Shown here in pieces: positions 3,649 to 44,412 of a stretch of DNA of 64,000 nt. Source of the DNA: an uncultured bacterium (lineage in GTDB: Bacteria > Auribacterota > JACPWU01). Each line of letters opens with the position of its first letter. Positions within the stretch are counted from its first letter, which is position 1. The notes beneath the pieces were generated by a model. The model was not told the origin of the DNA. It worked only from the letters and a program-made list of their open reading frames with translations, and searched no databases. Where the stretch lies: positions 322,342 to 386,341 of the forward strand of contig CAZXEQ010000002.1 of the NCBI GenBank assembly GCA_964640155.1. Direction: 5' to 3'. The translations under genes and the position numbers were made by a program.

Positions 3649-4578
3649 TTATTTCCAAAACTTTTTTAACCACTTTGCAGTTCCAGAAATTTCAACAGAC
3701 TCTGCAAATTTAACAAGATCCGGAATTTTTTTGACTTCATCGAGCCCAATCACTTTTCCACTTGTGAAAATAGGTGCAAGGCGATGGTAGTTATCTCCTA
3801 GCATTTGACGACATTGATAATCCGTTACACCACTCACGCCTTCCATAAGGATATTAATAATAGGTTTAACCCATTGGGCATGTCCCCAATCAAGTTCTTT
3901 TTTCTCAATGCGCATGAGAGATTGGCCTGTTCCTAATGAAAGAAGAACAATTTTTTCTGGAGAAGGTGGATTTTTGATGGCTCGTCGGTCTTGGGTTTGC
4001 GCCAAAGCAGCCATGCCGGGACTATTGGCACAAACACCTCCATCGATATAACCGTCCACGGATGGGAAATAAGTGGGAGCTGCACTGGTGTAAAGCGCAA
4101 TTTTATAAATGAGCTGTTCTCCATCACTGTCAGAGCCAGGGAAGTTATGAAAAAATTTTGGAGCCCAAGATCGTTTGTTGGGATCTGGATTTTCATTGTC
4201 CAGATCAAAAGTTGGAATTAGAACGCGTTTTTGTAAATTTGCTAATTTAGTTTTTCCAAAGATTCTTTTGAGTTCTTTAGATAAATTTTTATTGTCATAT
4301 TGGGCCCCCGTGATATTTCCCATATCTTTGAGATTATCTAGCCATGAATCATCAAAAATTTCTTTTCCTTTGCTCTCGTATAAACTCCGAAGTTCAGAAA
4401 GAGAGAGCCCGTGAGCAAGTCCCAATGCAATAATCCCTCCTGTGGAGGTTCCAGCCAATAAATCTATCTTGTCAAGCCAACCAGGCATTTCTTTTTCTAA
4501 ACGCTCAAGTAGAATTAGAGATAGCAACCCTCGAATACCTCCTCCGTCTAGAGATAATATTTTATAAAAAGGTTTCAT
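3649..4578 (-). CDS. patatin-like phospholipase family protein
   Basis: GGGIRG oxyanion-hole motif, GTSTGG (GxSxG) nucleophile elbow, DGG catalytic Asp motif. Confidence 0.85.
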   Translation of the reverse strand: MKPFYKILSLDGGGIRGLLSLILLERLEKEMPGWLDKIDLLAGTSTGGIIALGLAHGLSLSELRSLYESKGKEIFDDSWLDNLKDMGNITGAQYDNKNLSKELKRIFGKTKLANLQKRVLIPTFDLDNENPDPNKRSWAPKFFHNFPGSDSDGEQLIYKIALYTSAAPTYFPSVDGYIDGGVCANSPGMAALAQTQDRRAIKNPPSPEKIVLLSLGTGQSLMRIEKKELDWGHAQWVKPIINILMEGVSGVTDYQCRQMLGDNYHRLAPIFTSGKVIGLDEVKKIPDLVKFAESVEISGTAKWLKKFWK

Positions 4579-13520: not shown

Positions 13521-13594
13521 CGCCCGTAGCTCAGCTGGATAGAGCACTTGCCTACGAAGCAAGGGGCCACAGGTTCAAATCCTGTCGGGCGCAC
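13521..13594 (+). tRNA. tRNA-Arg (anticodon ACG)
   Basis: gcgcccgTAGCTCAGCTGGATAGAGC D-arm, anticodon loop cuACGaa, T-arm GGTTCAAATCC, acceptor pairing gcgcccg/cgggcgc. Confidence 0.85.
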
Positions 13595-13632
13595 GAATTC
13601 ACGAGTGCAATAATTACTTGAGTCATTAACGG

Positions 13633-13727
13633 CAGGATTTGAAGGGAGGGCCGGGTGGCCGACTTGTAGGTCGAAGACCGGAAGGCACCAAATCCTCTCT
13701 CCGGAGACGGGCATGCTGTCGGGCCCC
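13633..13727 (+). repeat. tRNA-downstream element copy 2 (shorter or degenerate)
   Basis: GGATTTGAAGGGAG...GGGTGGCCGAC motifs shared with copies 3 and 4; ends near a partial match to the tRNA-Arg 3' end (tgtcgggc). Confidence 0.4.
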
Positions 13728-13751
13728 AAACTTTATATGAAGTGTGAATGT

Positions 13752-14228
13752 ATGATACAAGAGACTCCTATTGATGAAAAAGATATAAAGTATATGACTG
13801 AAGCTTTGAAAGAAGCTCAGTATGCTTTTGATGATGGAGAAACACCTGTAGGAGCTTGTATTGTGTATGAAGGGAAAATTATTGCACGCTCTCATAATCA
13901 AGTGGAGCTTTTAAGAGATTCTACGGCTCATGCTGAGATGATTGCCATGACTCAAGCTGCCGATTTTCTGAATAACTGGCGATTGTTAAATTGTACACTT
14001 TATGTGACAAAAGAGCCTTGTTTGATGTGCACAGGTGCGATTTTGCTTTCAAGAATTCCTCGGCTTGTTTTTGGTGCTTTTGATGTGAGAAATAGGGGAT
14101 TAAGAGATTTAATTCATCCAGGTTATGAACCAGAAATGAAACAATTAAATATAGTGCAGGGAGTTTTAGAAGCAGATTGTCAATTTCTTTTGAAAGAATT
14201 TTTTAAGAAGGCTAGAGAAAAATCATAG
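13752..14228 (+). CDS. tadA: tRNA-specific adenosine(34) deaminase
   Basis: HAEMIAM and PCLMCTGA zinc-binding motifs; ~155 aa; start moved to Met (MIQETP) downstream of the repeat-overlapping ORF start at 13713. Confidence 0.85.
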   Translation: MIQETPIDEKDIKYMTEALKEAQYAFDDGETPVGACIVYEGKIIARSHNQVELLRDSTAHAEMIAMTQAADFLNNWRLLNCTLYVTKEPCLMCTGAILLSRIPRLVFGAFDVRNRGLRDLIHPGYEPEMKQLNIVQGVLEADCQFLLKEFFKKAREKS

Positions 14229-14282
14229 GTTGTAAATTAGTTTTTTATTTCGAATTACGATATACGAGATACTATTTTTGAA

Positions 14283-14371
14283 GGAGAGGTGGCTGAGTGG
14301 CCTAAAGCGACGGCTTGCTAAGCCGTTGTACTGTTAATTCAGTACCGGGGGTTCGAATCCCCCCCTCTCCG
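14283..14371 (+). tRNA. tRNA-Ser (anticodon GCU)
   Basis: Long variable arm, anticodon loop uuGCUaa, T-arm GGTTCGAATCC, acceptor ggagagg/cctctcc. Confidence 0.85.
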
Positions 14372-14445
14372 AAGTTTATTGGTAGCTTTAAAGTTAGCGG
14401 AAAGCAGCTTGAGCAAGAGGTCCATGTCGGTTATTGGGATTCGAA

Positions 14446-14564
14446 GGGAGGCCTGACATAGCATAATGCAAATCATGCACTGCATGATTTGCGACTGTTA
14501 GGAGGGCCGGGTGGCCGACCGGAGTGAGTGTAACGAACGTAGGCGCCGAATCCCCCCCTCTCCG
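14446..14564 (+). repeat. tRNA-downstream element copy 3
   Basis: GGGATTCGAAGGGAG start, internal hairpin (gcaaatcatgca/tgcatgatttgc), GGGTGGCCGACCGGAGTGA module, ends with cgaatccccccctctccgaagttta duplicating the tRNA-Ser(GCU) 3' end and flank. Confidence 0.5.
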
Positions 14565-14571
14565 AAGTTTA

Positions 14572-15261
14572 TCAAATCCATCCGGCAAAGAAAGCCACAC
14601 GTCCTTCTATATTCATTTTATAATTTTTGAAATTTTGGCTCAGAACTTTCTCCAAATCAGTCGCAGAATCTTTCTGATTTCCAAAAATTCCCTTCTTATT
14701 ATAGAGATTCATTAATTTTCTTCCTAGAAAGTTGTGTTCAATCCCTCCTCCCAAAATAGTTGTTCCAAAAATAACTCCTTGGGAACCCATCAAAGGTTTT
14801 AAGTGTTCAAAAACCTTTGCTTTATCTTGCATGTTTCCTGGAAGACAATGAAGAAGATATCCAAGTCCTATGGATGTGAAGTTTTTCTCATTCAATGGAA
14901 TGGGCTTGAGAACGTTTGCAACAAGTGTTTTAGGACGATACCGAGCAATGCGTCTGGTGGTGACCTCTAGACAATGAGGATTTAGATCCAAAAGAGTCAA
15001 AGAGAGATGCTGTGACGGGAATTGGCATTTATCTAAAAAGTAACCAGTTCCTACACCCACTTCTAAATGATGATCCGTTACATGATTGTTGTAAAAATCT
15101 AAAATTTTTTTTGTAGAACATTTCCATGCAAAATGATTTGAAAGTCCTAAAACAAAAAGATCATAGAGAGATAATACAAGCTTGGTATATACTGCTGCTC
15201 CAGAGTTTTCAGATGTATGTGTAGGGGCCATATGAACCTGGTTTTTCATGCAAGATAACAT
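14572..15261 (-). CDS. class I SAM-dependent methyltransferase
   Basis: LEVGVGTGYF glycine-rich SAM-binding motif I. Confidence 0.65.
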   Translation of the reverse strand: MLSCMKNQVHMAPTHTSENSGAAVYTKLVLSLYDLFVLGLSNHFAWKCSTKKILDFYNNHVTDHHLEVGVGTGYFLDKCQFPSQHLSLTLLDLNPHCLEVTTRRIARYRPKTLVANVLKPIPLNEKNFTSIGLGYLLHCLPGNMQDKAKVFEHLKPLMGSQGVIFGTTILGGGIEHNFLGRKLMNLYNKKGIFGNQKDSATDLEKVLSQNFKNYKMNIEGRVAFFAGWI

Positions 15262-15296
15262 CTTTGTATGGGTAAGAAAATAAAAAGCGATTTTTT

Positions 15297-16106
15297 ATGA
15301 CTTCTTTACAGAATATAAGTATTCTTAACAATTTTCTCAAATTTTTCAACATTTCTTCAAGTTTAAATGAAACTATGTTACTCGAGGCTGTTGTAAAGTC
15401 TTTTTCAAAGCTTCCTTATGAGAATCTGACAAAGATTATTTGTAAAGCAGAGGAAGGGACCCCCCAACGTGCCAGAAGAAATCCACAGAGAGTTTTAGGG
15501 GATCACTTTGATTTCGGAACAGGTGGAACTTGTTTTTCTTTAACTTCTACGCTTTTATGTTTGATTCGTTCACTCGGTTGGCAAGCGGAGCCTATTTTGG
15601 CGGATCGGCCTTATGGGCCCAATACGCATTGTGCCTTGCTGATTTGGATAGAGGGTAAACCCCATCTTTTAGATCCAGGTTTTCTTATTTTGAAACCTGT
15701 GTTTGTAGGTTTTGAAGAAGATCTTTGTTTGGAAACTTCTTTTAATCAAATGATCCTTTCTTCGCATGACAACCGCTTGAATCTTGCAACTCTTGAAAAA
15801 GGACAAAAGAAATTGAGAATGACCTATAAATTAAATCCTGTAGAGAAAAGCGAATTTTTAAAGGTTTGGGATGAATCTTTTGATTGGGAGATGATGCGAT
15901 ATCCTCTTTTGACAAAGATTGTAGAAAATCATCAGATTTATTTGAGAAAGACCCGACTACAAAATCGTTTTGCCAATGAGGCTCATCATTATGAATTAGC
16001 CGAAACAGAACTTTTAAAGAAAATTTCTCAAGAATTTAAAATTGCACCCATCATTGTTTCTAAAGCTTTAAATATTTTAAAGACCCAAGGAGAGCTTTGT
16101 GGCTAA
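15297..16106 (+). CDS. arylamine N-acetyltransferase (NAT) family protein
   Basis: GGTCFSL...IRSLGW catalytic-Cys region and THCALLIWIEGKPHLLDPGF matching the NAT Cys-His-Asp triad context. Confidence 0.6.
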   Translation: MTSLQNISILNNFLKFFNISSSLNETMLLEAVVKSFSKLPYENLTKIICKAEEGTPQRARRNPQRVLGDHFDFGTGGTCFSLTSTLLCLIRSLGWQAEPILADRPYGPNTHCALLIWIEGKPHLLDPGFLILKPVFVGFEEDLCLETSFNQMILSSHDNRLNLATLEKGQKKLRMTYKLNPVEKSEFLKVWDESFDWEMMRYPLLTKIVENHQIYLRKTRLQNRFANEAHHYELAETELLKKISQEFKIAPIIVSKALNILKTQGELCG

Positions 16107-16623
16107 GACAAGTTTTCCAACTCCCGTGAAGCTTTTCGTGGCAGTGCTTTGGACTAATTCTGATGTTTTGAATAAAGCTTACAAAGTGCTTCAAGAAAAA
16201 TGGGGATCTTTTGATTTTGAGGGACAAGATCATGCATTTGATATCACTGATTATTATGAGAATGAAATGGGGAAAAATCTTAAACGCAGATTGATTGCTT
16301 TTGAGAAGCTTGTTTCACCTGAAATTCTTGCGGGGGCCAAAATTCTTTGCAATGAAGTTGAAGAAAAGCTTAAGATTGAAAATAAAAGGCAAATCAATTT
16401 GGACATTGGATATTTAGACCATAACAAAATTGTTTTGGCTTCTGCCAAGGGTGCTGGGCAAAAGATTTATTTAAGAGATGGGATTTATGCAGATTTTATT
16501 GCCCGTTTTGGGAAAGGGCATTATCGGCCTTTTGAATGGTGTTTCCCTGATTTTAAAGATGGGAGATATGATAAAGAGCTTTTACAGATTCGAGAGAAAT
16601 ATTTAACACAATTGAAGAAATAA
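16099..16623 (+). CDS. hypothetical protein (possibly DUF4416-like)
   Basis: 174 aa; 8-nt overlap with upstream NAT-like gene suggests co-transcription; family from memory only. Confidence 0.45.
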   Translation: MAKTSFPTPVKLFVAVLWTNSDVLNKAYKVLQEKWGSFDFEGQDHAFDITDYYENEMGKNLKRRLIAFEKLVSPEILAGAKILCNEVEEKLKIENKRQINLDIGYLDHNKIVLASAKGAGQKIYLRDGIYADFIARFGKGHYRPFEWCFPDFKDGRYDKELLQIREKYLTQLKK

Positions 16624-16630
16624 TATAGGT

Positions 16631-16769
16631 AAATTGTCCAACAGAGTGTTCAGGCACGTTCATTTACCCCGGCGAGGTAAATGAACTCAAGGGAGATCTT
16701 GCTCCCCTGATGTCCATCGGGGTCCTTGCTCGCTTGATCTCTAGTGGTCTTCACTCTCCGTTGGACAAT
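16631..16769 (+). ncRNA. candidate structured RNA upstream of dnaX (identity unresolved)
   Basis: Long-range inverted repeats aattgtccaacagagtg / cactctccgttggacaat enclosing nested hairpins (gttcatttacc...ggtaaatgaac; cccctgatgtccatcgggg); lies where SRP RNA often sits relative to dnaX, but the SRP domain IV motif was not seen. Confidence 0.3.
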
Positions 16770-16909
16770 AGACAAGTTGAGTGTCCAAATCTCATATCCA
16801 TGTGCAACAATTGTCTGTAGATAGAATGCGATGAATAAGAGTTACCTCTTGATCCTATGAAGGTTTATCGGTTAAAGTTAGTCCTGTAAATTTCTGTAAG
16901 GAGAACAAA

Positions 16910-18553
16910 GTGAGTTATCTTGTTTTAGCGCGTAAATGGAGGCCCCAAACTTTTGAAGAAATCGTGGGCCAGCCCCATGTGGTGACAACATTAAAAAATG
17001 CGATTACGATGAATCGTGTTGCGCATGCCTATCTTTTAAGTGGGCCCAGAGGAGTGGGTAAGACCAGTACTGCTCGTGTTTTTGCAAAAGCACTTAATTG
17101 TAAAAAGGCAATAACACCAGAGCCCTGCAATACTTGCGTGAATTGTACAGAAATTGCAGCTGGCTCCAGCATGGATATTTTAGAAATTGATGGTGCTTCT
17201 AACCGTGGAATTGATCAAGTACGGGAGCTTCGAGACAATGTTAAATTTGCTCCTGCCTCTGGACGCTTTAAAGTGTATATCATTGATGAAGTTCACATGC
17301 TGACTCAAGAAGCTTTTAATGCTCTTTTAAAAACTTTGGAAGAACCTCCAAGTCATGTGAAATTTGTTTTTGCAACTACAGAAATTCATAAAGTTCCTGC
17401 GACCATTCTTTCCCGATGTCAGAGATTTGATTTAAGAAAGATTTCTACAAGCCAGATTTTGAATCATCTCAAAGAAATGGTGAAGAAAGAAAAAGTAAAA
17501 GCCGATGAAAAAATTCTTTTTGCAGTTGCTAAAATGGGAGACGGCAGTCTTCGAGATGCAGAGAGTTTGCTTGATCAGCTCATTTCGTTTTCCGAAGGCC
17601 ATATCAAATATGAAGAAGCCATGGATATTTTGGGTTGTGTCCCGCGAGAAAAAGTTCTTCAGCTGGTTGTGGCTTTAAAAGAAGGGGACTGGGAAAATCT
17701 TTTTGAAAATATTCGTAAAATGGATGAAGAAGGTAAAGACTTGAGTGTATTTGTGAGAGAGTTAGGGGCTCATTTAAGAGATCTTTTGATCCTTCAAATG
17801 GATTCAAAGCAGGTAGCCTTGGTTGAATTAAGCCCAGAAGATTTAGAGGAAGGTAAGCGGCAAACTCAATTCTTTTCAAGAGATCAACTTTTGCAAATGT
17901 TGGAAGTAACATTAGAAGCAGAAGATCGATTTAAAAATGCTTTATCAAAACGCTTTTTGCTCGAAGCTTTGTCAGTTCGGCTTTTTTTGATTGGACAGTC
18001 GATATCACTAGAAACATTGATTTCAAAAATAGATACTTTGGGGAATCTTCCTGCTTCTATCGCTCCCTCTGTAAAAAATAAACAAGAATCTCCAGTGGAA
18101 ACGCTAAAAAAAAACGAATCTTTTAGTATAACTCCTCGTACAAATAGTGTAGCTCCTGGTCATAAGCATACCGAAACCTGGGGGAAATTTTTGGTGGACA
18201 TCGGTGGGCGTAAACCCCTTTTACACGCATATCTAAGAGAAGGAATGTTCCAATCAGACGGGATTCGTCTTCAATTGATTTTTCCACAAGATAAAGCCTT
18301 TTTTCTAGATTCCTTAAAAGCACCCGAAAATCAAAAAGTGATTCGCGAGGGGATTCAAAAAACTTTTGGGAATGAATTTTCATTGGAATTTGTTTTAGGT
18401 TTCAAGAGCCCAATACAAAAGATGCAAGAGCAACCGAACAAAGTTTCAGAGCCAAGTGTTGTTGTGTCATCTGACATGGCGATTCAAGATGACCCTATCG
18501 TACAAAAGGCACTTGAAATTTTCGAAGGAAAAATTACGGAAATCAAAAAGTAA
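16910..18553 (+). CDS. dnaX: DNA polymerase III subunit gamma/tau
   Basis: GPRGVGKTS Walker A, clamp-loader motifs (SRCQRFDL); GTG start after GGAGAA RBS. Confidence 0.9.
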   Translation: MSYLVLARKWRPQTFEEIVGQPHVVTTLKNAITMNRVAHAYLLSGPRGVGKTSTARVFAKALNCKKAITPEPCNTCVNCTEIAAGSSMDILEIDGASNRGIDQVRELRDNVKFAPASGRFKVYIIDEVHMLTQEAFNALLKTLEEPPSHVKFVFATTEIHKVPATILSRCQRFDLRKISTSQILNHLKEMVKKEKVKADEKILFAVAKMGDGSLRDAESLLDQLISFSEGHIKYEEAMDILGCVPREKVLQLVVALKEGDWENLFENIRKMDEEGKDLSVFVRELGAHLRDLLILQMDSKQVALVELSPEDLEEGKRQTQFFSRDQLLQMLEVTLEAEDRFKNALSKRFLLEALSVRLFLIGQSISLETLISKIDTLGNLPASIAPSVKNKQESPVETLKKNESFSITPRTNSVAPGHKHTETWGKFLVDIGGRKPLLHAYLREGMFQSDGIRLQLIFPQDKAFFLDSLKAPENQKVIREGIQKTFGNEFSLEFVLGFKSPIQKMQEQPNKVSEPSVVVSSDMAIQDDPIVQKALEIFEGKITEIKK

Positions 18554-18554
18554 T

Positions 18555-19154
18555 ATGAGTTATAAGCTAGATGCTTTTCAAGATTTAATAGATGCTTTTA
18601 AGCTTTTCCCGGGTATTGGTACGAAAACTGCTGAACGCATGGCCCTTCATTTATTGAAGGCTCCTCTTCAGAAAACCAAAGATTTTTCAAGAATGGTCCA
18701 GGTTGCGCGAGAGCGCTTGAGATTTTGTTCAGAGTGTTTTCTCTTTACTGAGAAAAATCCATGTGCTGTATGTCAGGATTCTGAAAGAGATAGAAATATC
18801 ATTTGTGTTGTGGAGGAGGCTAAAGATGCTTTTGTCCTTGAGAGATCTGGGGGATTTCAAGGACTTTATCATGTTTTAATGGGGAAAATTTCTCCTTTGG
18901 ATGGAATTGGTCCTGATGAATTAAAAGTCATGGAACTTTTAAAGCGTGTTCAACAACTGAAGCCACGAGAAATTATTTTGGCGACAGGAATGGATGTAGA
19001 AGGAGAAGCAACAGCGCTTTATTTAGGGAAGTTGTTGTCAACGGAAGGGATTGTTATTTCTCGAATTGCTTATGGAATCCCTGTGGGAATGGGCTTAGAC
19101 TATGCAGATGAATTGACTTTGACTAGAGCTTTGGAAGCAAGAACAAGTCTTTAA
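18555..19154 (+). CDS. recR: recombination protein RecR
   Basis: HhH motif PGIGTKTAERMA, C4 zinc finger CSECFLF...CAVC, Toprim region; ATG 1 nt after dnaX stop. Confidence 0.9.
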   Translation: MSYKLDAFQDLIDAFKLFPGIGTKTAERMALHLLKAPLQKTKDFSRMVQVARERLRFCSECFLFTEKNPCAVCQDSERDRNIICVVEEAKDAFVLERSGGFQGLYHVLMGKISPLDGIGPDELKVMELLKRVQQLKPREIILATGMDVEGEATALYLGKLLSTEGIVISRIAYGIPVGMGLDYADELTLTRALEARTSL

Positions 19155-19238
19155 AAGAAGGGATTTCATTGCATTTGGATCAGACCTGTGTTACTAAAGA
19201 TGCTTGTTCTACTGTAGAGGAAAGGAAGTAAGAGTTCT

Positions 19239-21176
19239 ATGGCTAAAAAGAAAAAAGGTTTCCCAAAAGAAATGATGCAAGGTAAGCCCTTTAAGCCAGC
19301 GATGTTTTGGATTTTATTAGGCGCAGCCCTTCTCTATCTTTTTAATATTAATAATATTGCTAAAAAGGGTGTGGATCATCCTTCCTATAGCCAATTCTTT
19401 GAGTCCGTGAAAAGTGGCAATGTGCGTGGAGTTGATCTTATGGGCGATATTGTTCGGGGTGAATATCAAAATGGACAACGGTTTTTACTCAACATTCCTA
19501 AGGAAGACAGTGCGTTATTGGCTGCGTTAAGAGAGAATGTTCGAGATTTTAATATTCGCTCGGAAAATAACCTTTGGGCCAGCCTTCTTTTTTCATTAGC
19601 CCCTATGGTGCTCTTTATTGGGTTTTTATGGTTTTTTGTTTATCGTCAAATGAAAGGGGTTGGAGGCGGTGCGCTCAGTTTTGGAAAATCTCGAGCCAAA
19701 CTTTTGACCAAAGATCGGGAAAAAATTACTTTCAAAGATGTTGCAGGTGTAGATGAGGCGAAAGAAGAACTACAGGAAATCATCGAGTTTTTAAAAGACC
19801 CTAAAAAATTTCAGAAATTAGGCGGACGTATTCCCAAAGGCGTTTTATTAATGGGACCTCCAGGTTCAGGGAAAACACTTCTTGCGAAATCGGTTGCGGG
19901 TGAGGCAGATGTTCCTTTTTTTACCATTAGCGGGTCAGATTTTGTGGAGATGTTTGTGGGTGTAGGGGCTTCTCGCGTTCGTGATCTTTTTGAACAGGGG
20001 AAGAAGCATGCCCCCTGTATTATTTTTATTGATGAAATTGATGCAGTGGGTCGCCATCGTGGAGCTGGTATTGGTGGCGGACATGATGAGCGTGAACAAA
20101 CGTTGAACGCTATTTTGGTGGAGATGGATGGATTTGATACACAAGAAGGCGTGATCATCATGGCGGCTACCAACCGACCTGATGTATTGGATCCAGCTCT
20201 TTTGAGACCAGGTAGATTCGATCGACAAGTGGTTGTAGATTTACCGGATCTTCATGGACGTTTGGGCATTTTAAAGGTGCATACCAAAAGAGTGGTTTTG
20301 GCTCAAGATATTGATCTTTCTATCATTGCACGTGGTACGCCTGGTTTTTCTGGAGCAGATTTGGCTAATTTGGTGAATGAAGCGGCTCTTTTGGCTGCAC
20401 GACATGGCAAGAAATCCATTAGCTTGCCGGAAATGGAAGAAGCCAGGGATAAGGTGCGTTGGGGGCGTGAACGAAAAAGTCGAAATCTTTCTGAAGAAGA
20501 TAAAAGGATTACTGCCTATCACGAATCTGGACATGCCTTGGTTCTGCATTTGCTTCCAGAAACAGAACCTTTACATAAGGTAACGATTATTCCTAGAGGT
20601 GTCGCTTATTTGGGAGCTACCATGCAGCTTCCAGAAAGAGATAAATACACAGAATCTAAAAAAGAAATCTTAGGCCAGATTACAGGTATGATGGGGGGTC
20701 GTGTAGCTGAAGAAATTATGTTTGGAGAAATTACTTCGGGTGCGTCCAATGACATCAAAAACGCAACAACACTCGCCCGAAAAATGGTATGCGAATGGGG
20801 GATGAGTGATAAGTTAGGCCCTATGACTTTTGGCGAGCATGAAGAACATATTTTTTTAGGTAGAGAAATTTCAAGATCTGTTGATTATTCGGAATCCACA
20901 GCCATTGAAATTGATCGTGAGGTACGTCGCATCATTGATGAATGCTATCAGAGAGCCAAAAGCATTATTATAGAAAATAAAGACAAATTGATTGCCCTGG
21001 CTGAAACTTTAATCAAAAGAGAAGTGATGGAAGGCAAAGAAGTTGATGCGATTATCTCTGGGAAAGTAGTTCCTCATATCGAACCTTCTGCAAATCCTTA
21101 TGACCGGATTTTAAAGAAGCGGTCTCAACAAGATGTACAGGCGATTCATGAACCCCAAACCGAGTCTGCCCCCTGA
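19239..21176 (+). CDS. ftsH: ATP-dependent zinc metalloprotease FtsH
   Basis: N-terminal TM segments, AAA Walker A GPPGSGKT, Walker [10 protein letters not shown], zinc protease motif HESGHAL. Confidence 0.93.
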
Positions 21177-22014
21177 AGTAAAATCTATTTGGAAAATTAA
21201 AGATCGAACGTTGACCTTTTCTCGGCGTCCTCTCATCATGGCTATTCTCAATGTTACTCCAGACTCTTTTTCAGATGGAGGGCGATTTTTAGATAGAGGA
21301 AAAGCAATTGAGCAGGCAATGATATTGGTTAAAGAAGGTGCGGATATTTTGGACATTGGAGGGATGTCAACACGTCCAGGTGCAGAGGAAATCCCTGTAG
21401 AAGAAGAACTGAGGCGTGTGATTGAAGTAATTCAAGCTTTGAGTTCTCAAATTAAAATTCCTATTTCTATTGATACCTATCGAGCGCAGGTTGCTGAACA
21501 GGCTTTAGCAGCGGGTGCCCATATTGTGAATGATATTGGGGCTTTAGGCCTAGATTCTAGAATGGCTTCTGTTGTGAGGGACATGGGGGCAGGTCTTATT
21601 CTGATGCATATGAGAGGAACTCCCCAGACCATGCAAAAAGACTTACATTATGAAGATTTACTAGAAGAGGTTTCGAAATTTTTAAAGAATCGTTTACAAG
21701 TTGCTCGAGAAAATGGAATTAGTGAGGAGCAAATGGTTGTGGATCCCGGTCTTGGTTTTGGAAAAAGTTTCGAGCAAAATTTAGAAATCTTAAAGAATCT
21801 AGAGTTCTTTCATCAGATGGAACGTCCTCTTCTTGTAGGCCCTTCCCGAAAATCATTCATTGGCCAAATCTTGCAGAATACTCCTGAAAAAAGGCTCTGG
21901 GGGACACTTGCTTCTGTCACGGCCTGTTTTTATCACAGAGCAAATATTCTTCGTGTTCATGATGTGCTCCCTGTTTTTGAGTTTTTAAAAGTCCTTTGTG
22001 AAATTGAGAAATAG
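21133..22014 (+). CDS. folP: dihydropteroate synthase
   Basis: ILNVTPDSFSDGG pterin-binding signature; overlaps 3' end of ftsH so true start is probably an internal Met. Confidence 0.85.
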   Translation: MYRRFMNPKPSLPPEVKSIWKIKDRTLTFSRRPLIMAILNVTPDSFSDGGRFLDRGKAIEQAMILVKEGADILDIGGMSTRPGAEEIPVEEELRRVIEVIQALSSQIKIPISIDTYRAQVAEQALAAGAHIVNDIGALGLDSRMASVVRDMGAGLILMHMRGTPQTMQKDLHYEDLLEEVSKFLKNRLQVARENGISEEQMVVDPGLGFGKSFEQNLEILKNLEFFHQMERPLLVGPSRKSFIGQILQNTPEKRLWGTLASVTACFYHRANILRVHDVLPVFEFLKVLCEIEK

Positions 22015-22030
22015 GTTTTGCTATAAAAAT

Positions 22031-22150
22031 ATATTCTTTAAGTAAGAAGCGGGTCCTGACGCTTGGCAGCCTCACCATACTTATGAAAAATTGCGCGCGG
22101 TGGGGCTTCCCCGCCAAGCGTCACCCATATCTATAAAGAACATACTTTTA
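22031..22150 (+). repeat. palindromic repeat element (RPE-like) copy A, intergenic folP-cdaA
   Basis: Aligns to the other six copies (gggtcctgac...aaaaattgcgcgcgg.ggggc..ccccgcc.agcgtcaccc); most diverged copy. Confidence 0.6.
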
Positions 22151-22244
22151 ATAAGTTCAACCGGAAAAGTAGATTTTTGAATTTTCCGTTATCTCTTTCG
22201 AATCAAAATGAAGTAAAATCTTTTTAACAACAAAGCGAGATTTT

Positions 22245-30805: not shown

Positions 30806-30875
30806 AAAGTATAGAATTTGTGATGAATCTTTTCAATGATTTATAACAATGTTTGCTCAATAGATATTGTAATTA

Positions 30876-30998
30876 AAAGTGTGTACTTTTAAAAAAGTGG
30901 CAGGGCCTGACACTCGTCATCCCCACCGTGCTCATAAAAAATTGCGCGCGGCGGGGCTCCCCGCCGAGTGTCACCCGTATTATAAAGGACACACTTTT
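30876..30998 (+). repeat. palindromic repeat element (RPE-like) copy B, intergenic greA-pbpC
   Basis: Terminal inverted repeats aaagtgtgtactttt / aaaggacacactttt, internal GC-rich hairpin gcgcgcggcggggctccccgccgag. Confidence 0.7.
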
Positions 30999-31008
30999 AT
31001 ACATGCTA

Positions 31009-33210
31009 TCACTCAACATGAATATTCACTTTTGCTGAAGCGCCTGTTTCGTCTGTAACGTAAATCTCATGCAGGCCAGGTTGAGGAATCCAAAAAAGAG
31101 CTTTTTCTGGACGGGTTTTCCCTATGAGAAGCCCATTCACAAACCACCATCGCCAGGAATGAGGCGATCCTCCTATAGACTGAAGAGGTAGTTTTTGATT
31201 TTTTTGAAAAGAGGGGGCGTCTAAGAAAAATTTTTGATTTGAAGAAATAGAAGAAATGGTTAGTTTAGAAATATCTTTTTCAAGTTCAATAGATTTTGCT
31301 AAACCTTCGTCCTGGATTTGAGGCCATGGTTTATTTTTCGGCTTTAAGCAAGATAGAAGTTTTAAAGTCAAGGGTGCTGCCAAAGTTTGTCCAACTAATT
31401 CATGAGAGCCTTTCCCAAGAGAGTTTCCAAGCCATGTTACAAGTGTGTATTCATGTGTTACTGCTACACACCAAGCATCTTTGTGTGCACTGCTTGTGCC
31501 TGTTTTCCAGGCAGGATTAAATGGAATGGCTTCAGGACAAACAGCGTAAGTTCGTTTGGGATCACTTAAGGCATTCAGTACTTGCCAGCATGCTTTTTGA
31601 GATAATATATTTTGATGGTGTGAATAAAAGTGCGGTCCTTTAAAAAGTGGCGGGTCCTGCCACTCGTCAGCCCCAACGTGCTCACTAAAAGTTGCGCGCG
31701 ATGGGGCCCCCCGCCGAGTGTCACCCGCATCTGTAAAGGACACACTTTTATCTACAGGATTTACATTTTGTGTGGCAGTGTCAGTATTAGATGTTAAAAG
31801 AGGAATATAAGTGACAGGCAGATGAATTCCTCCTCGCCCCAGTGTTGCAAAAGCTTCTGCAAGTTCTATAGGAGAAGCCTCGGCTCCTCCTATAGCTAAA
31901 GAAAGGCCATATCGATCTGGAAATTGCTCCAGTCTTTTAAATCCTAAACTTTGTAAAATTCCAACTACGCGAGCGATGCCTATTTTAGAAAGTAAAATCA
32001 TGGCGGGGATATTTCGACTTTGAGCAAGTGCTTCTGCCGCACACATAAAGCCTCTAAAAGTATGATCAAAATTGCTAGGGGTGTAGCCCTCCCAGCTCAA
32101 AGGAAGGTCTTTTAAAATTGTTGTGGGGGTGCAAATTCCTGCTTCAAAAGCGGCTGCGTAAATAAATGGTTTTAATGTAGAACCTGTTGAATAGTAACGG
32201 TTGGATAAATCTAAATTATTTGCATCGTCACATAAATTAATCGAGGCCAAACACTCAGAAGTTTGTGTGTTTAAAAGAACAAGTGAAAGAGCGTTGATCT
32301 GAGAAGATTTTAACTTTTCGAATTCTTGTTTGGCTATGAGGGTTAACTGCTCTTGAATATCTTTATCTAAAGAGGTTTTAAATTTTCCTTGTTGAAATTT
32401 TTCCTTTAAGGTCAGTAAGATGGGCAGAATTCCTGATTTTTTTTCTTGTGGCAGAGCTTGCCATGTGGCTTGAATAGGTTCTTCAATAGCGCGTGCGTAA
32501 TCTTGCTCAGAGATCATTTTTTCTGATAACATTCGAAACAAAACGTGATTACGTCTCTTAAGTGCACGTTCTATAAAACGATCTGGGCGATAGCGATTGG
32601 GACTTTGAGGAAGGCCTGCCAAAAGGGCAGCTTGGCTTAAAGAAAGATTGCGACATGAAATTCCAAAATATCTCCAGCTTGCAGCACCTACCCCGATTAA
32701 ATTCCCTCCCAAAGGACATCGATTGAGATATTCTGTCAAAATTTCATTCTTACTCATTTTTCTTTCTAATTGATAAGCACGAATAGATTCAATCAGTTTG
32801 GATGAGAAAGTCCGTGGTTTTGGATAACGTAAATGTTCAACTTGCATGGTAAGAGTGCTTGCGCCACGTATGATTTTCATGGCTTTAAAATCTTGCCAAA
32901 GAGCAGCAGCAACGCCAATCCAGTCCACTCCATGGTGTTGATAAAAACGATGATCTTCGACGGCAACAATTGCTTTAAAAAGATAAGGGCTTATTTCTTC
33001 TTCTTTTAATGGAAAATACCATTCATTTTTTTCTGAAACAAAAGCCCCCAAAGGCTTTCCTTCTCGATCTTCTATCCAAAGGCTGGGTGGAGGTTTTGGA
33101 GTGGGAGGATAAGACCAGGAGTAAACTGCAATAGAAAACGAAATACAAATAAAACTGAATACGCTAATAATTCCCAGTATGAAAATTTTGAAAGAATGTT
33201 TAATGGTCAT
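31009..33210 (-). CDS. pbpC: penicillin-binding protein 1C (transglycosylase/transpeptidase)
   Basis: N-terminal TM, glycosyltransferase motifs (EDHRFYQHHGVD; RGASTLTMQ), transpeptidase STGSTLKP; start overlaps stop of upstream A2M gene. Confidence 0.88.
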   Translation of the reverse strand: MTIKHSFKIFILGIISVFSFICISFSIAVYSWSYPPTPKPPPSLWIEDREGKPLGAFVSEKNEWYFPLKEEEISPYLFKAIVAVEDHRFYQHHGVDWIGVAAALWQDFKAMKIIRGASTLTMQVEHLRYPKPRTFSSKLIESIRAYQLERKMSKNEILTEYLNRCPLGGNLIGVGAASWRYFGISCRNLSLSQAALLAGLPQSPNRYRPDRFIERALKRRNHVLFRMLSEKMISEQDYARAIEEPIQATWQALPQEKKSGILPILLTLKEKFQQGKFKTSLDKDIQEQLTLIAKQEFEKLKSSQINALSLVLLNTQTSECLASINLCDDANNLDLSNRYYSTGSTLKPFIYAAAFEAGICTPTTILKDLPLSWEGYTPSNFDHTFRGFMCAAEALAQSRNIPAMILLSKIGIARVVGILQSLGFKRLEQFPDRYGLSLAIGGAEASPIELAEAFATLGRGGIHLPVTYIPLLTSNTDTATQNVNPVDKSVSFTDAGDTRRGAPSRATFSEHVGADEWQDPPLFKGPHFYSHHQNILSQKACWQVLNALSDPKRTYAVCPEAIPFNPAWKTGTSSAHKDAWCVAVTHEYTLVTWLGNSLGKGSHELVGQTLAAPLTLKLLSCLKPKNKPWPQIQDEGLAKSIELEKDISKLTISSISSNQKFFLDAPSFQKNQKLPLQSIGGSPHSWRWWFVNGLLIGKTRPEKALFWIPQPGLHEIYVTDETGASAKVNIHVE
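31627..31750 (+). repeat. palindromic repeat element (RPE-like) copy C, in frame inside pbpC
   Basis: Reverse complement translates without stops as KSVSFTDAGDTRRGAPSRATFSEHVGADEWQDPPLFKGPHF within the PbpC ORF. Confidence 0.7.
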
Positions 33211-36200
33211 GAATGTGAATGGGTTGCAATTTTCATTGTTTCATTGTCACGACTGATGCTGTTAATTGAAATATCATACATGCATTCAGCTTTTACAGGG
33301 GGAACAGTAAAAGTTCCAGGAGTCACAGCCCTGGCTAGATAAGTATATTGTGCTTTCCCTTTGTCTAACATTTTTCCGTAGAGCACAAGACGATCATCAC
33401 GAATATCGATATGACTATCCATAAATGTAGTTTGAGTAGGGTCTTTGAGAATAGAAGCTGAAGTTGCAAGCCTTGGATTTTCAATTTCAAGTCCAGCGGG
33501 AAGCAAATCTTCAATGACCATATTGTCATAACCCAAAGGACATTCTAGATGTATCTCTACTTGTATCAAGTCTCCACTACAAATTTTATCTAGGGCGATT
33601 GCGTGTCCCTGTTGATCAAGATATCTTTTTCTCACACTTATCCCATGATCTTCATTTAAAGGAGGCTCTTTGGCAAGGCCTGTGATGCTCCATGCAACAT
33701 AGCCCTTTGTTTTTTCAGCTCCTGAGATTTTAACTGAAAATTCTTTCCCATTCAGAAATTTATTTGAAGAATTCCAGAGAAGAGAATCTCCATTCCCTGT
33801 TTCAGAAATTTTCTCTGTCCCCGCCCAAAGTTCGGCTGATGTAAAAGGTTCTCCAAAATCTGTTTCCTTTAAATAAGACCCCAGTGCAAGAAGAGCAAAA
33901 GCATGATCTTGCGTACTTTGCCATTTTTTTTCGCCGCCGGCTTGGGCAAGTTCTTTAACCAATTTGGGAAGGGCTGGATTTTGTGGATCAAGTTCAATCA
34001 GACTTTGAATTAAAATAGCTTGATCTCGAATAGGGGACCCAATGTTTCCAGATAGGTCTCTGTTTTGGCGAGGGTGAGGTAGATTCTGAGGAATTAACTT
34101 TAAGGCCAAATCTCGTCTGCCAGAATAAAGCCAGGCCAGGGCAAGATAAAAGCGAGTTGAAGGATGGATGCTAGAGGAGATAGAAGTTGGGAGAGTGGAA
34201 GGTCTTTGAAAAATATCTTCCAGACGTGACATCATGGATCTCTGGGGATATCCCGCTTTAGCAAGAACAAAACAGGCATAAGCCTGAATCTCTAAAATAT
34301 TGGGTTGATCAGAACTTTCGTTTAATAATTTTCGAACATAATTTAAAAGTCGATCGCGAAAATCAGTTGGAATAGAGAAGCCGGCGTTTTCTGCTTCGGT
34401 GATAAAATGTGTTGCATAAACACTGGCCCAGCTCCAGCTCTCAGTATAGCCAGGCCACATAGCAAGTCCCCCTTCAGCTGTTTGCATACTGATCAAACGA
34501 TTAAGAGCTGTTTCAACTCTTTGATGAATGTATTGAGTATTAAATGGTTCTGGGAAAATCTTCTCTCCTAGTTTTTGCAATCCAATGAGAGGAAAGGTGG
34601 TGCTAACCGTTTGTTCGGCACATCCATGGGGGTATTCATTGAGATAATCCAAAGCCTTTGTCAGATTTAAAGTGGGAAATGGAGTTACGTGAATATTCAA
34701 CTGTGTTGTTCCCTCAATCCATTTTTCTGGAATTCTGATTTTAAAATCTTGATGGGGTTTAAGGGTTGCATATCCTCCTTCAGAAATTGAAGGACAGGCA
34801 GGACGAATAGGGAATATGAGATTTTGCTGATATTCTTGTCCATTGAGTTGCGCTTTGATTTTAAGACGAGCTATTCCCATTTTATTCTTAGCTTTCAAAG
34901 GAATGGTGATCACGGTTTGAGCGTTATCGGGAATGGAGTTTGTAGTAAAATTGATTTTTCTTTCGGAGGAGTGTGGAAAATAAACAGGACTTTTATTGTC
35001 TAGTTCTATTGAGAGGTTAGCAATGCCTTCACTTCCCGTATGATTGAAAATGACAATCGGTATTTCAAAATGATCATTATTTGCAGCAAAGCGAGGAGTA
35101 GTACTTTGTAACATGAGAGGAGATTTAACAAAAATGGGCTTAGATGCTGATCCAAAAAATTTTTTAGAATGAGCAATGGCCATGACTCGCAATTGACCTG
35201 TGAATTCTGGAAGACGAAAATCAACTTTTACGTTTCCATTTTCGTCACAGCGAAGTACTTTTGAAACAAGTGCAACATTTTTCATACGTTGTATAGACAA
35301 TGGAGTTAAATGACGTGGCTCATAACCTCCATCTCCTCCCACCGAACTTTTAGGATTTATTTTTGGAATCTCTGGGAAAAGTTCTCCATAAAGATCTGAA
35401 ACAAATACGTTCAAAGCTCGATTTCGATGAAAGAATGAAAAAGGATCTGGGGGTGAGAAATTCGTGAGTTGAAGAATCCCTTCATCTACGATTAACAAAG
35501 TGACCCTTGCATTTTTAGCAGGTTTATTTTGAGGGGTTAAAACTTTTGCTTCAACACGGATTTTGTTTTTGGGCAGGATTTCTTTTTTTGTTTGAATCTT
35601 TATTTTCAGCTTTTGATCGTTATTGTTGATCGCAAGGCGAGTCACGCCAAAAGCACGATGGATTTTCCATGGAGCCTTGGAATGGACGGGCTGAATCACC
35701 GTCGCACTTACATAGGCATTGGGACGATAGCTTTCTAAAATATCAATCGGAATAGATATATGAGATTGTGTCATGGTCAGAACTTTGTGAAAGAGAACAT
35801 TCTCTGTTTCTATCGTTAAAAGAAGTTGCCCTGGGAAAGGACTGCGAACAATGACTTGCGCTTGACCTCCAACTTTCAAAGAGGACGAATATCTATTAAA
35901 GTGCGTCTTTTTAAAAAGAAGTGGGTCCTGCCGCTCGTCAGCCCCATCGTGCTCAGTAAAAGTTGCGCTCGATGGGGCCCCCCGCCGAGCGTCACCCACA
36001 TTTTTAGAATCATTTTTTAATTCTTTGCCCATAGGAATAATTTCAATTTGTAATTGCTCTGGGTTCTCTCGAGAGACTGAATCCTCCCAGCCATTTTCAC
36101 TGCTCACATAAAATCCATGTGAAGTGAAGCTGCCTGTTTGAGAATCTTTGATAGCAATCACATAAGACCCTTCACTGGGAGGAATGATTTCAAAATGTCC

Positions 36201-38948: not shown

Positions 38949-39008
38949 TCTCCAAAATCCAAAGTTTTTTAGTTAGAAATAGTAGGAAAATAATCTCACA
39001 TATAAACT

Positions 39009-39156
39009 TAAGTCCTCGGGCTTTTCACCGTCCTTTAGGATGAGGTAAGAAACGGGGCCTGCCACTCGTCAGCCCTACCGTGCTCATGAAAAATTGCGCG
39101 CGGGGCGGGGCTCCCCCCGCCGAGTGTCACCCGTATTGTAAAGGACACACTTTTTT
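39009..39156 (+). repeat. palindromic repeat element (RPE-like) copy E, long variant
   Basis: Core as other copies plus 5' extension gtcctcgggcttttcaccgtcctttaggatgaggtaagaaacgg shared with copy G. Confidence 0.7.
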
Positions 39157-39368
39157 ACACACGATCGGGAAAATTTTCTTAAAAACACTTTGAGATTTTC
39201 GAGAAGCAGGGTCAAGAAGAAAACAGAAGTGATTTATAAAATACGAAGTAACTCGCTGAAGGAGAGAAAGTAGGGATAAAATTTTTTTGAAAAATTATTT
39301 TACAATTAAAAAAACTTGAAGATTTTTCTAAATCTCAAGCTCGAAGTTTAAGGGATTTCTCAAAAGGA

Positions 39369-40508
39369 TTAAAGCTTTCTTACTTTGACATGAGCTTCTT
39401 CTAATAAGCGTAGACTTACATCCCCTACAGAATAGGCATGACTATAAACAACTTCTTTGATGCCACTATTGATAATCATTTTGGTACACATCAGACAAGG
39501 TGAAAAAGTAGAGTAAATTGTAGAGTCTTTAATGCTGACCCCATGATAAGCCGATTGTGTGATCGCATTTTCTTCAGCATGTGAGCATAAACATTCATCG
39601 AGCTGAGTCCCTTGTTGGGAGAAGCTGTTGCATCGTAGACAACCTCCATCCATACAATTCTTAGTACCACGGGGCGTTCCATTATAGCCCGTGGCAATGA
39701 TGCGTTTGTCTTTAACAATAACCGCCGCGACTTTTCGTTTGATACAATTGCTGCGTAAGGCAACTACTTTAGCAATTCCTATAAAATAATCATCCCAGCC
39801 AGGTCGACTAGAATTTGTTCCATATTTTTTTAATACCTCAATCACTTGTTCGTAAATTTTTTCAAGAGATCCTGCATTCATTAAAGAAGTATCTGAAATG
39901 GCTTGTGTTTGGTCTAGTTGTTGATGGTTAGGATTTTGAGATGAACGTTCTGCGTTTTCCAGACGTATAAATTCTTCTAGAGTCTGAGGGTCATTCTCTC
40001 TTCCTCGGGCTTTGATTCGCTCAAAACGTAGTTCCAGAGGAGCATCAATAAAAAGCAGAATAAAATCTTTTCTTTTCTTGAGGGATTTAGCTTCTTCAGG
40101 ATTGCGGATAGAATCTACAACATAATTTTTATCAACATCTAGAGTAGACGAAATCTTATCTGCTAAAACGGAAGGTCCAAACTGACTACGAAGTTCATTC
40201 CCAACTTGAATTAAATTTTCGCGTGTGATTTGAGTCCGTCGATTTTTGAGTTCATCTCGAAGAACATCCGAAAGCGAGGAATAAATAAACCCCCGTTGTT
40301 TTAAAAATTCTGCGATAACTCCTTTGCCTGAGCCATTTCTTCCAGTGAGTCCAATAATCACAAGATTAGAATCCTTTCTTATCAATTCTACTTTCTCGAT
40401 AGATTCTACTATGAGGCGAGTTGTTGGACAACCATTGTTTAAACTAAAAGCGAGAACGATTTTATAATTAAAAGTGTGTACTTTTAAAAAAGTGGCAGAG
40501 CCTGCCAC
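39369..40508 (-). CDS. P-loop nucleotide kinase / dCMP-type zinc deaminase fusion protein
   Basis: N-terminal IIGLTGRNGSGKG Walker A (CoaE/dNMP-kinase-like), C-terminal deaminase with CSHAEENAI and SPCLMCTKMI zinc motifs; the annotated Met start lies inside repeat copy F so the true start is uncertain. Confidence 0.7.
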   Translation of the reverse strand: MAGSATFLKVHTFNYKIVLAFSLNNGCPTTRLIVESIEKVELIRKDSNLVIIGLTGRNGSGKGVIAEFLKQRGFIYSSLSDVLRDELKNRRTQITRENLIQVGNELRSQFGPSVLADKISSTLDVDKNYVVDSIRNPEEAKSLKKRKDFILLFIDAPLELRFERIKARGRENDPQTLEEFIRLENAERSSQNPNHQQLDQTQAISDTSLMNAGSLEKIYEQVIEVLKKYGTNSSRPGWDDYFIGIAKVVALRSNCIKRKVAAVIVKDKRIIATGYNGTPRGTKNCMDGGCLRCNSFSQQGTQLDECLCSHAEENAITQSAYHGVSIKDSTIYSTFSPCLMCTKMIINSGIKEVVYSHAYSVGDVSLRLLEEAHVKVRKL

Positions 40509-40596
40509 TCGTCAGCCCCACCGTGCTCATGAAAAATTGCGCGCGGCGGGGCTCCCCCCGCCGAGTGTCACCCGCATATATAAAGTACACACTTTT
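40471..40596 (+). repeat. palindromic repeat element (RPE-like) copy F, overlapping the 5' end of the kinase-deaminase ORF
   Basis: Near-identical to copy B (aaagtgtgtacttttaaaaaagtggcag.gcctg...). Confidence 0.7.
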
Positions 40597-40831
40597 CTAC
40601 ACATCATCGCAAGAACTTCAATTAGAATATTTTAATTTTACTTTAATGATTTTTTAACCTTTCTACTGAGATAATGCCTCTGTTAAAAAAGGCAGCATTG
40701 TTTCAGAGATAAAAAAATCTTTTCTTCAAATAGGGGGTTATGGTATATTTTGCGCACCTTACTCATCATGTGGGATGATGAGAGGATGTAGTTCAAAGTT
40801 AATTATTTAAATCAAACCAAGGAGATCAGTA

Positions 40832-41456: not shown

Positions 41457-41770
41457 TTTAGAGATTTTTCAGAAAAAGGGTGTTCTTTGTAATGCGGATG
41501 ACACTTGTCGGTGGGACTGACAAGTGGTAGGAACCACTATTCCTACAAAGAATACACTTGCTATAATTAATGTTTATTTACATTCTTTAAATTGGTATTC
41601 TTATCCAGTATTAGCTTCGCCCTTGGAGGGGAGCCAACGGGCCTATCCAACATTGTGAGAAAAACATTCAAATCCTATTAAAGGGATATTGAAAGTTTTT
41701 CTTTCTCTAGATTTTGGCCCTGTCAGTATTCGAATGTCCAACGTGTGTCTTGGGGAGCCATAAAGCTATT

Positions 41771-43312: not shown

Positions 43313-43325
43313 GATATCCCTAATA

Positions 43326-43475
43326 AAAAGTGTGTCTTCGGACTTTTCGCCACCTTTAGGATTATATAAGAAACGGGTCCTGCCACTCGTCAGCCCCACC
43401 GTGCTCATAAAAAATTGCGCGCGGTGGGGGGCCTCTCCGCCGAGTGTCACCCGTAGTGTAAAGGACACACTTTTT
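43326..43475 (+). repeat. palindromic repeat element (RPE-like) copy G, long variant
   Basis: TIRs aaagtgtgtc / aaaggacacac; 5' extension cttcggacttttcgccacctttaggat shared with copy E. Confidence 0.7.
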
Positions 43476-43580
43476 GCGCACGATTGATTTTCCTCATTGG
43501 TCCTCAAATTCTACAGTTCTGGTCCCTATGACGTGAGTATGCATAAGAAAAAGTTTGAGGGTATTTAAAATTCGGATAGA

Positions 43581-44152: not shown

Positions 44153-44224
44153 GCTGGTGTAGCTCAACGGTAGAGCACCTGATTTGTAATCAGGCGGTTG
44201 CGGGTTCAAATCCCATCACCAGCT
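44153..44224 (+). tRNA. tRNA-Thr (anticodon UGU)
   Basis: gctggtgTAGCTCAACGGTAGAGC, anticodon loop uuUGUaa, T-loop TTCAAATCC; one apparent T-stem mismatch. Confidence 0.7.
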
Positions 44225-44277
44225 GTTTCTTTGTGCAGTAGGAAATTGCAAAGGAATCTCACAGACTTGAAGAGCTG

Positions 44278-44412
44278 ATGGGAGGATTTGAAGGGAGCTC
44301 CGACGCCTTTATGATGCTGATCATGCGGTGCATGATCAGCGACGTCTAGTCGGAGCGGGTGGCCGACCGGAGTGAACGAAGTGAACATAGGCGCCAAATC
44401 CCATCACCAGCT
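44278..44412 (+). repeat. tRNA-downstream element copy 4
   Basis: GGGAGGATTTGAAGGGAG start, long hairpin (gctccgac...gatgctgatcatgc-ggt-gcatgatcagc...gtcggagc), GGGTGGCCGACCGGAGTGA module, ends with caaatcccatcaccagctgtt duplicating the tRNA-Thr 3' end. Confidence 0.5.

Follow-up and report, generated by a model that had tools for sequence, protein, structure and literature searches.

We analysed a 64-kb stretch of DNA (hereafter the window) in which tadA (13713-14228), a tRNA-Ser gene, a methyltransferase gene on the minus strand, an N-acetyltransferase gene (15297-16106) and a DUF4416 gene were followed, in this order, by a short structured element, dnaX, recR and ftsH (Table 1). The element begins 9 nt past the DUF4416 stop codon, and a further 141 nt separate its end from the GTG start of dnaX; an earlier note, written from this DNA alone, had placed it immediately upstream of dnaX, which was right as to the side and not as to the distance. 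Between the element and dnaX we found a promoter-like block (TTGAT., a 17-18-nt spacer and TA[AG]AGT, about 30-60 nt 5′ of the dnaX start) that was near-identical in the close relative L091 (about 3931-3960) and recognisable in four further relatives (L083, L085, L087 and L084). Specifically, this block was conserved among relatives with DnaX identities of 53-90%, while everything farther upstream was variable; in a consensus promoter scan it fell below threshold. From its conservation we infer that dnaX has its own promoter, 3′ of the element, and since the block lies downstream of the element, the latter is probably outside the dnaX mRNA leader.

Table 1. Features of the window referred to in the text (positions are those of the whole 64-kb stretch).
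Feature	Position	Strand	Remarks
DUF4416 gene	16099-16623	+	PF14385, E = 1.4e-51
Lineage-specific segment holding the element	16620-16841, 222 nt		L091 has an unrelated 102 nt, 3822-3923
Foldback element	16633-16769, 137 nt		Closing stem = terminal inverted repeats; encloses a junction with two hairpins
Closing-stem 5′ arm = left terminal inverted repeat	16633-16648		ATTGTCCAACAGAGTG; includes GTCCAAC 16636-16642, fits RYYYAAC
Hairpin H1	16658-16686		11-bp perfect stem GTTCATTTACC / GGTAAATGAAC; loop CCGGCGA
Hairpin H2, basal stem	16692-16742		7 bp, 16692-16698 / 16736-16742; H2 as a whole, pair probability 0.5-0.8
CTTGCTC motifs in internal loop of H2	16698-16704, 16725-16731		Flank the apical stem-loop
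Hairpin H2, apical stem	16705-16711 / 16716-16722		7 bp; loop GUCC
Closing-stem 3′ arm = right terminal inverted repeat	16752-16769		CACTCT-CC-GTTGGACAAT; GTTGGAC 16760-16766 fits GTTRRRY
TGTCCAA heptamer, third copy	16782-16788		Inverted relative to TTGGACA 16761-16767; within the lineage-specific segment
Promoter-like block for dnaX	16849-16878	+	TTGATC 16849-16854, 18-nt spacer, TAAAGT 16873-16878
dnaX (DNA polymerase III gamma/tau subunit)	16910-18553	+	TIGR02397, E = 3.9e-140; start GTG 16910
recR and ftsH, downstream of dnaX			recR TIGR00615; FtsH TIGR01241
GC-rich family, strong copies 1-4	22012-22163, 30861-31010, 31611-31761, 35883-36017	+
GC-rich family, strong copies 5-7	38998-39168, 40455-40609, 43322-43486	+
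GC-rich family, weak copy	41473-41559	-

The predicted secondary structure bore out the architecture described in the earlier note, namely a region of about 140 nt closed by long-range complementarity and holding nested hairpins, with a symmetric pair of TTGCTC motifs around a central stem-loop. The closing stem comprised 16 bp in two parts, an outer helix of 10 bp (16633-16642 / 16760-16769, AUUGUCCAAC/GUUGGACAAU; pair probability 0.98) and an inner helix of 6 bp (16643-16648 / 16752-16757, AGAGUG/CACUCU; pair probability 0.86), interrupted by a CC bulge at 16758-16759. Within it, the nested hairpins were H1, whose stem (16658-16668 / 16676-16686) had a pair probability of 1.00 and appeared as an inverted repeat with 14-nt arms that were 93% complementary, and H2, which carries the two CTTGCTC copies and is the part of the predicted fold known with the least certainty. 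The further inverted repeats that had been reported (ttggacaa / tgtccaa) were likewise present, as TTGGACA (16761-16767) and TGTCCAA (16782-16788); the significance of the TGTCCAA heptamer is doubtful, because 7-mer repeats around the element occurred at chance frequency (12 direct and 12 inverted pairs in a 450-nt region).

The stability of this fold was exceptional on both strands. A 157-nt stretch holding the element folded to -58.3 kcal/mol on the plus strand (shuffles, -42.2 ± 4.2; z = -3.8) and to -58.6 kcal/mol on the minus strand (z = -5.1), and none of 200 dinucleotide shuffles (0/200) equalled the native fold on either strand. The element itself had minimum free energies of -57.0 kcal/mol (plus) and -57.2 kcal/mol (minus), the former tied for the most stable 140-nt plus-strand fold when the 64 kb were sampled every 35 nt, and its fold was kept when embedded in 350 nt of context. 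Its helices were nearly all Watson-Crick, with G.U accounting for 3 of 49 pairs on the plus strand and 4 of 47 on the minus strand. The GC content, 50% vs 39% in the window (98th percentile), suggests a foreign or structure-driven composition. Two independent SRA assemblies (L081 and L082) carried an element sequence identical to that of the window, which excludes an assembly artefact.

The sole close relative found was L091 (GCA_041906865.1), whose DnaX is 90% identical. L091 and the window were colinear over about 8 kb at 83-85% DNA identity (blastn), with L091 972-3821 corresponding to window 13772-16619 and L091 3924-9117 to window 16842-22018, and this colinearity broke exactly at the segment holding the element. 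Global alignment of the segment with the L091 spacer yielded z = -2.0 in full and z = -1.1 minus the element, whereas four other intergenic spacers compared between the window and L091 reached z = 4.9, 6.3, 17.5 and 53 over shuffled controls; because these other spacers are conserved, high neutral turnover is not general here. A clean-insertion model was rejected, as the 83 nt remaining once the element was removed were still not alignable to L091. The L091 spacer was weakly structured (-12 kcal/mol over 90 nt).

The DUF4416 protein itself is shortened at the segment boundary, with a C-terminus reading ..QLKK* vs ..QLKNLRNVS* in L091 and ..QLRExKx* in L083/L085. This truncation points to a derived replacement in the lineage of the window, in a comparison of two genomes that cannot polarise the change firmly; with only two close genomes compared, there may have been a loss in L091 rather than a gain in the window. 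The earlier note had named conservation in relatives as a check on its candidate structured RNA and had taken a lack of conservation, together with a lack of transcript, as refuting it, and the element proved to be missing from L091 with both flanks conserved. On these alignments, a conserved small-RNA gene is excluded. What survived of the candidate was the stable branched fold; the idea of a conserved RNA gene fell, there being no Rfam match and no counterpart in L091.

Besides L091, the closest DnaX proteins (53-62% identity) came from MAGs labelled Chlamydiae/Chlamydiota, and among these relatives the slot 5′ of dnaX differed. In L083 and L085/L086 it was occupied by an unannotated ORF of 149-163 aa, in L087/L088 by a VapBC pair, and in L084, L089 and L090 by other genes. 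The ORF, located between DUF4416 and dnaX (L083 646-1137; L085 2405-2854; L086 194-643; DnaX about 60%), had no Pfam domain, a hydrophobic N-terminus and a conserved centre (..SEPFYAIILK..CSVSEEERLKVQ.LFLKNKVFS..), and was missing from both the window and L091. We rejected the element as a pseudogene remnant of this ORF, since tblastn and blastn returned nothing.

The earlier note had also pointed out that a small RNA, often SRP RNA, is commonly found beside dnaX-recR. This arrangement was recovered in 11 of 20 distant loci that had been retrieved through DnaX, where SRP RNA (Rfam small or large) lay on the same strand directly 5′ of dnaX and the models scored 57-196 bits, but in none of the Chlamydiota relatives L083-L088, whose dnaX upstream regions contained no Rfam RNA, SRP included; SRP-dnaX synteny is therefore inapplicable in this clade. 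At the element, an Rfam scan of the whole window at the gathering threshold placed no family, and a search of 16550-16950 at E<=10 on both strands gave noise only (mir-7950, snoZ162 and lncRNA fragments). Neither RF00169 nor RF01854 matched at the element on either strand, at the gathering threshold or at E<=10. The scan for SRP, 6S and other families that the earlier note had proposed thus identified no family, even at the permissive cutoff.

Searches for further copies pursued the element as DNA, as RNA and as protein. The element was present once in the 64 kb and about 2 kb of flank that was reached via edge proteins, with no second copy detected in the window by pattern search or blastn and none in the added flank. 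Additionally, blastn found no copy among 95 fetched loci or in plasmids and phages. A covariance model (R1), built from the single sequence and its predicted structure, recovered only the element itself from 621 kb that included the dnaX upstream regions of the relatives, and two scans of JGI metagenome contigs, which used the terminal arms and the internal-loop core, respectively, gave 0 matches. Three scans of viral contigs returned matches in L092 and L093 only, by way of a terminal-arm pattern, which we discarded as chance because both are one identical coding-like sequence with nothing in common with the element beyond the 11-nt arms. A six-frame pseudo-protein search, aimed at catching spurious ORF calls in hidden copies of the element, found no match at E<=10 among 5.8 billion predicted proteins. 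As ORFs within the element region were only 26-41 aa and no protein matched at E<=10, we also rejected a small protein encoded by the element.

The same genome hosts other elements with terminal inverted repeats, above all a GC-rich family with 7-8 copies in the window (Table 1). Members of this family were about 130-150 nt long, had 15-nt terminal inverted repeats (AAAAGTGTGTACTTT / AAAGTACACACTTTT) and folded to -54 to -63 kcal/mol, and all seven strong copies in the 64 kb shared one orientation. The central helix showed compensatory changes between copies (GACACTCG/CGAGTGTC, GACGCTTGG/CCAAGCGTC and GCCGCTCG/CGAGCGTC), and we found neither an Rfam match nor a copy in the other fetched loci. 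Two copies were located in-frame within protein genes on the minus strand: that at 31611-31761 within ORF 31009-33210, a class A PBP whose Pfam transpeptidase match reaches only to residue 490, where the repeat starts, and that at 35883-36017 within ORF 33207-38948, a bacterial alpha-2-macroglobulin, between the bMG6 and bait-region domains. Both inserts encode a common peptide, roughly GD(T/A)RRGAPS.ATF.EH.GADE.QDP.LFK. In-frame repeats within protein genes are best known from the Rickettsia palindromic elements, which these copies resemble.

Turnover of such elements could be followed at the spacer at 22014. Here, window 22019-22153 is a copy of the GC-rich family that is missing from L091 (9118-9138), and a different 166-nt element at L091 9192-9357, bounded by the 15-nt terminal inverted repeats GCTTAGAAACGGAAG / CTTCGATTTCTAAGC and possibly flanked by a TAA target duplication, is missing from the window at about 22227. 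From these reciprocal clean insertions it follows that small elements with terminal inverted repeats were gained or lost since the window and L091 split. The element 5′ of dnaX is not a member of the GC-rich family, having no match to it by nhmmer at E<=10 and none by blastn.

Other repeats and duplications were encountered in the window. A repeat of about 120 nt was found at 14437-14554 and 44284-44402, downstream of tRNA-Ser and tRNA-Thr, respectively, with 74-75% identity between the copies, and it also occurred in L091 (1638-1755) beside a tRNA-like stretch. Inverted copies of tRNA 3′ ends were located 42 nt downstream of tRNA-Arg (13574-13587 / 13630-13643, 14 nt) and of tRNA-Thr (44205-44227 / 44270-44292, 23 nt); these copies may pair with the tRNA into long hairpins, or may be remnants of integration sites. 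There were also two 398-aa ORFs, 46476-47672 and 62231-63427. The second is EF-Tu by Pfam, and an identical protein is encoded on a contig of an unrelated run (DRR784955); the first is located in a tRNA cluster and may be a second tuf copy.

Taken together, the element is real and strongly structured, an orphan at a single locus whose conservation does not extend even to a congener. Our preferred reading, held at about even confidence, is that it represents a lineage-specific, non-coding imperfect-palindrome (foldback) insertion, that is, a MITE-like mobile element or the relic of one. Bacterial MITEs are defined as shorter than 500 bp and bounded by terminal inverted repeats of about 4-30 bp, and the direct repeats that flank them decay with age (PMC10969869). 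The element is 137 nt long, its 17-nt terminal inverted repeats are complementary at 15 of 17 positions, and it encodes no protein (six frames, no match at E<=10). It is also polymorphic, being present in the window, L081 and L082 and absent from L091, in the form of a replacement and not of a clean insertion. Both-strand stability and near-pure Watson-Crick pairing, as predicted, would fit DNA-level palindromy better than an evolved RNA, if weakly so. The DUF4416 truncation at the segment boundary, the deviating GC content, the lack of an Rfam match and the turnover of other small elements with terminal inverted repeats between the window and L091 favour this reading too. At the flanks (..GGTAA/ATTGTCC and GGACAAT/AGACAA) there was no target-site duplication; we considered the ACAATTG direct repeat (16608, 16807) for this role and rejected it because the homology with L091 runs on to 16619. 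No transposase or integrase was identified among the ten unassigned ORFs of the window that were tested. Further points against this reading are that a single copy was found in the 64 kb and about 2 kb of flank, and that MITEs are typically AT-rich, whereas the element is GC-enriched. We infer mobility of this particular element, in which case the 222-nt segment carrying it would have replaced the original spacer in the lineage of this species and, on arrival, would have removed the final codons of DUF4416. Given a start 9 nt past the stop codon and a location 5′ of the conserved dnaX promoter, the element would probably be present in RNA only at the untranslated 3′ end of the NAT-DUF4416 mRNA. 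In that position, so stable a structure could act as a passive obstacle to 3′ exonucleases or hinder read-through into dnaX, as has been proposed for other bacterial palindromic repeats.

Several readings treat the structure as something that acts in RNA. That it is a young, lineage-specific functional RNA, either a small RNA from one of the two strands or a cis-acting element of the NAT-DUF4416 3′ UTR, is somewhat unlikely in our estimation. Such an RNA would be in keeping with a fold that is exceptional against shuffles on both strands, tied for the best in the window and kept in context, with a site between the end of an operon and a conserved promoter, and with the documentation of MITE-derived sRNAs in other systems (PMC10969869); one variant would be a functional 3′ UTR that terminates the NAT-DUF4416 transcript or insulates it from dnaX, or that is processed to a stable RNA. 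However, the structure is not conserved in L091, whose spacer reaches only -12 kcal/mol over 90 nt, and the identity of L081 and L082 to the window leaves no base changes for covariation. Moreover, a consensus scan found promoter-like sites on neither strand and, on the plus strand, no terminator with a U-tract, G.U pairing showed no strand asymmetry, and Rfam had no match. A narrower form, in which a three-way-junction sRNA, newly born or horizontally acquired, was brought in by a mobile insertion and would have a function in this single Chlamydiota lineage, perhaps that of a regulator processed from the 3′ UTR, is decidedly unlikely; it would place an RNA in the slot where SRP RNA sits in other phyla. 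As for the element being a highly divergent SRP (4.5S/ffs) RNA in its usual slot 5′ of dnaX, we regard this as virtually impossible, even though SRP RNA directly precedes dnaX on the same strand in 11 of the 20 loci from other phyla and the tadA...dnaX-recR neighbourhood resembles the tadA-ffs-dnaX-recR gene order of Firmicutes. Neither SRP model matched, even at E<=10. In domain IV of SRP RNA, a GNAR tetraloop caps a stem in which conserved symmetric and asymmetric loops follow at a short distance, and we read no GNAR tetraloop with a conserved symmetric loop 3 bp beneath it in this sequence; in agreement with the earlier note, which had not seen the domain IV motif, the apical loops are GUCC (GGAC on the minus strand) and CCGGCGA, on apical stems of 7 and 11 bp, and do not resemble that domain. 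An essential RNA with a fixed locus could hardly be absent from the syntenic site of L091, and other clade members have no SRP RNA near dnaX. A terminator plus promoter and nothing else, with the structure ending the DUF4416 operon, has a natural position, directly after the stop codon with the conserved dnaX promoter block farther downstream, and is nevertheless quite improbable: no U-run follows any plus-strand helix (the sequence past the closing stem is TAGACAAG), the consensus scan gave no plus-strand site and one weak minus-strand site inside H2, a 137-nt three-helix structure far exceeds the size of an intrinsic terminator, and L091 has no comparable structure at the site. Retron, bridge-RNA and IS605-type guide RNA candidates were set aside for want of an adjacent reverse transcriptase, recombinase or transposase gene, and a sigma-54 promoter in the TTGCT motifs was dismissed on the GG/GC spacing, which, read from the sequence, is wrong.

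Other readings concern the DNA itself. Under a neutral local origin, which we consider unlikely, the spacer would be one of fast turnover in which mutations such as template switches or inverted duplications produced the palindrome locally, with neither mobility nor function. This agrees with the non-homology of the whole 222 nt, which extends beyond the unit bounded by the terminal inverted repeats, with a single copy that has no target duplication, with near-perfect helices of the kind expected from recent inverted duplications, and with a slot 5′ of dnaX that differs in every relative. Set against it are three nested near-perfect helices together with GC enrichment, which are hard to produce by a single local event, the lack of a local source for the arms by blastn, and the conservation of all the other spacers tested between the window and L091. 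We also weighed a solitary integron attC-like recombination site. attC sites have R boxes of the form RYYYAAC / GTTRRRY and lengths of 57-141 bp; in each arm, 5-6 nt between the R and L boxes stay unpaired as a central spacer, and near L'' there are 2-3 extrahelical bases, of which the first and last are separated by a 6-bp stem (PMC5027507). GTCCAAC and GTTGGAC in the terminal arms fit the R boxes, span 131 bp, within the length range, and are the window's sole complementary R boxes at a distance of 57-141 bp, either consensus occurring in just 1.6% of random 17-mers from the window. This resemblance, which was spotted post hoc, stops at the boxes: there is no 5-6-nt central spacer, with a 2-nt bulge on one side and then 6 more bp past the R box, and the unpaired bases are one contiguous CC bulge (16758-16759) in place of spaced extrahelical bases. 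Given also that the window has no second attC-like site, that no integrase was among the ten unassigned ORFs tested, and that the neighbours are syntenic housekeeping genes with no array or cassettes, an attC site is very improbable.

These results remove a false lead, that of a divergent SRP RNA or novel conserved RNA beside dnaX, and show that, where structured repeats have colonised a genome, synteny combined with a strong predicted fold is insufficient for calling an RNA gene. The element itself matters little. Of wider interest is that a Chlamydiota-related genome holds several families of small structured elements bounded by terminal inverted repeats, which have moved since the split from its congener, and the more noteworthy result, though an incidental one, is the in-frame GC-rich repeat family.

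In comparison with known systems, the element shares with bacterial SRP RNA (RF00169 / RF01854) the slot just 5′ of dnaX, the strand and the paired 5′ and 3′ ends, but it is branched rather than rod-like, has no covariance-model match and no domain IV, and does not occur in L091. Like an integron attC site, it forms an imperfect hairpin (131 bp) whose ends carry RYYYAAC / GTTRRRY boxes and whose terminal structure is branched; unlike one, it has no central spacer, spaced extrahelical bases, integrase or array. The GC-rich (RPE-like) family of the same genome is similar in length, fold energy, GC-rich structured core, terminal inverted repeats and presence or absence in L091, without sequence similarity (nhmmer at E<=10, blastn). 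The element departs from bacterial MITEs in that no second copy, direct repeats or partner transposase were found, and in its GC enrichment and unclean insertion. What it has in common with MITEs and palindromic repeats such as ERIC, Correia, RUP and QMITE is a length of about 100-200 nt, terminal inverted repeats, a non-coding nature and a stable stem-loop, along with a location outside genes or clipping gene ends and a presence or absence that varies between close relatives (PMC10969869). Most simply, then, it would be filed among the small palindromic or MITE-like insertions, an already known kind.
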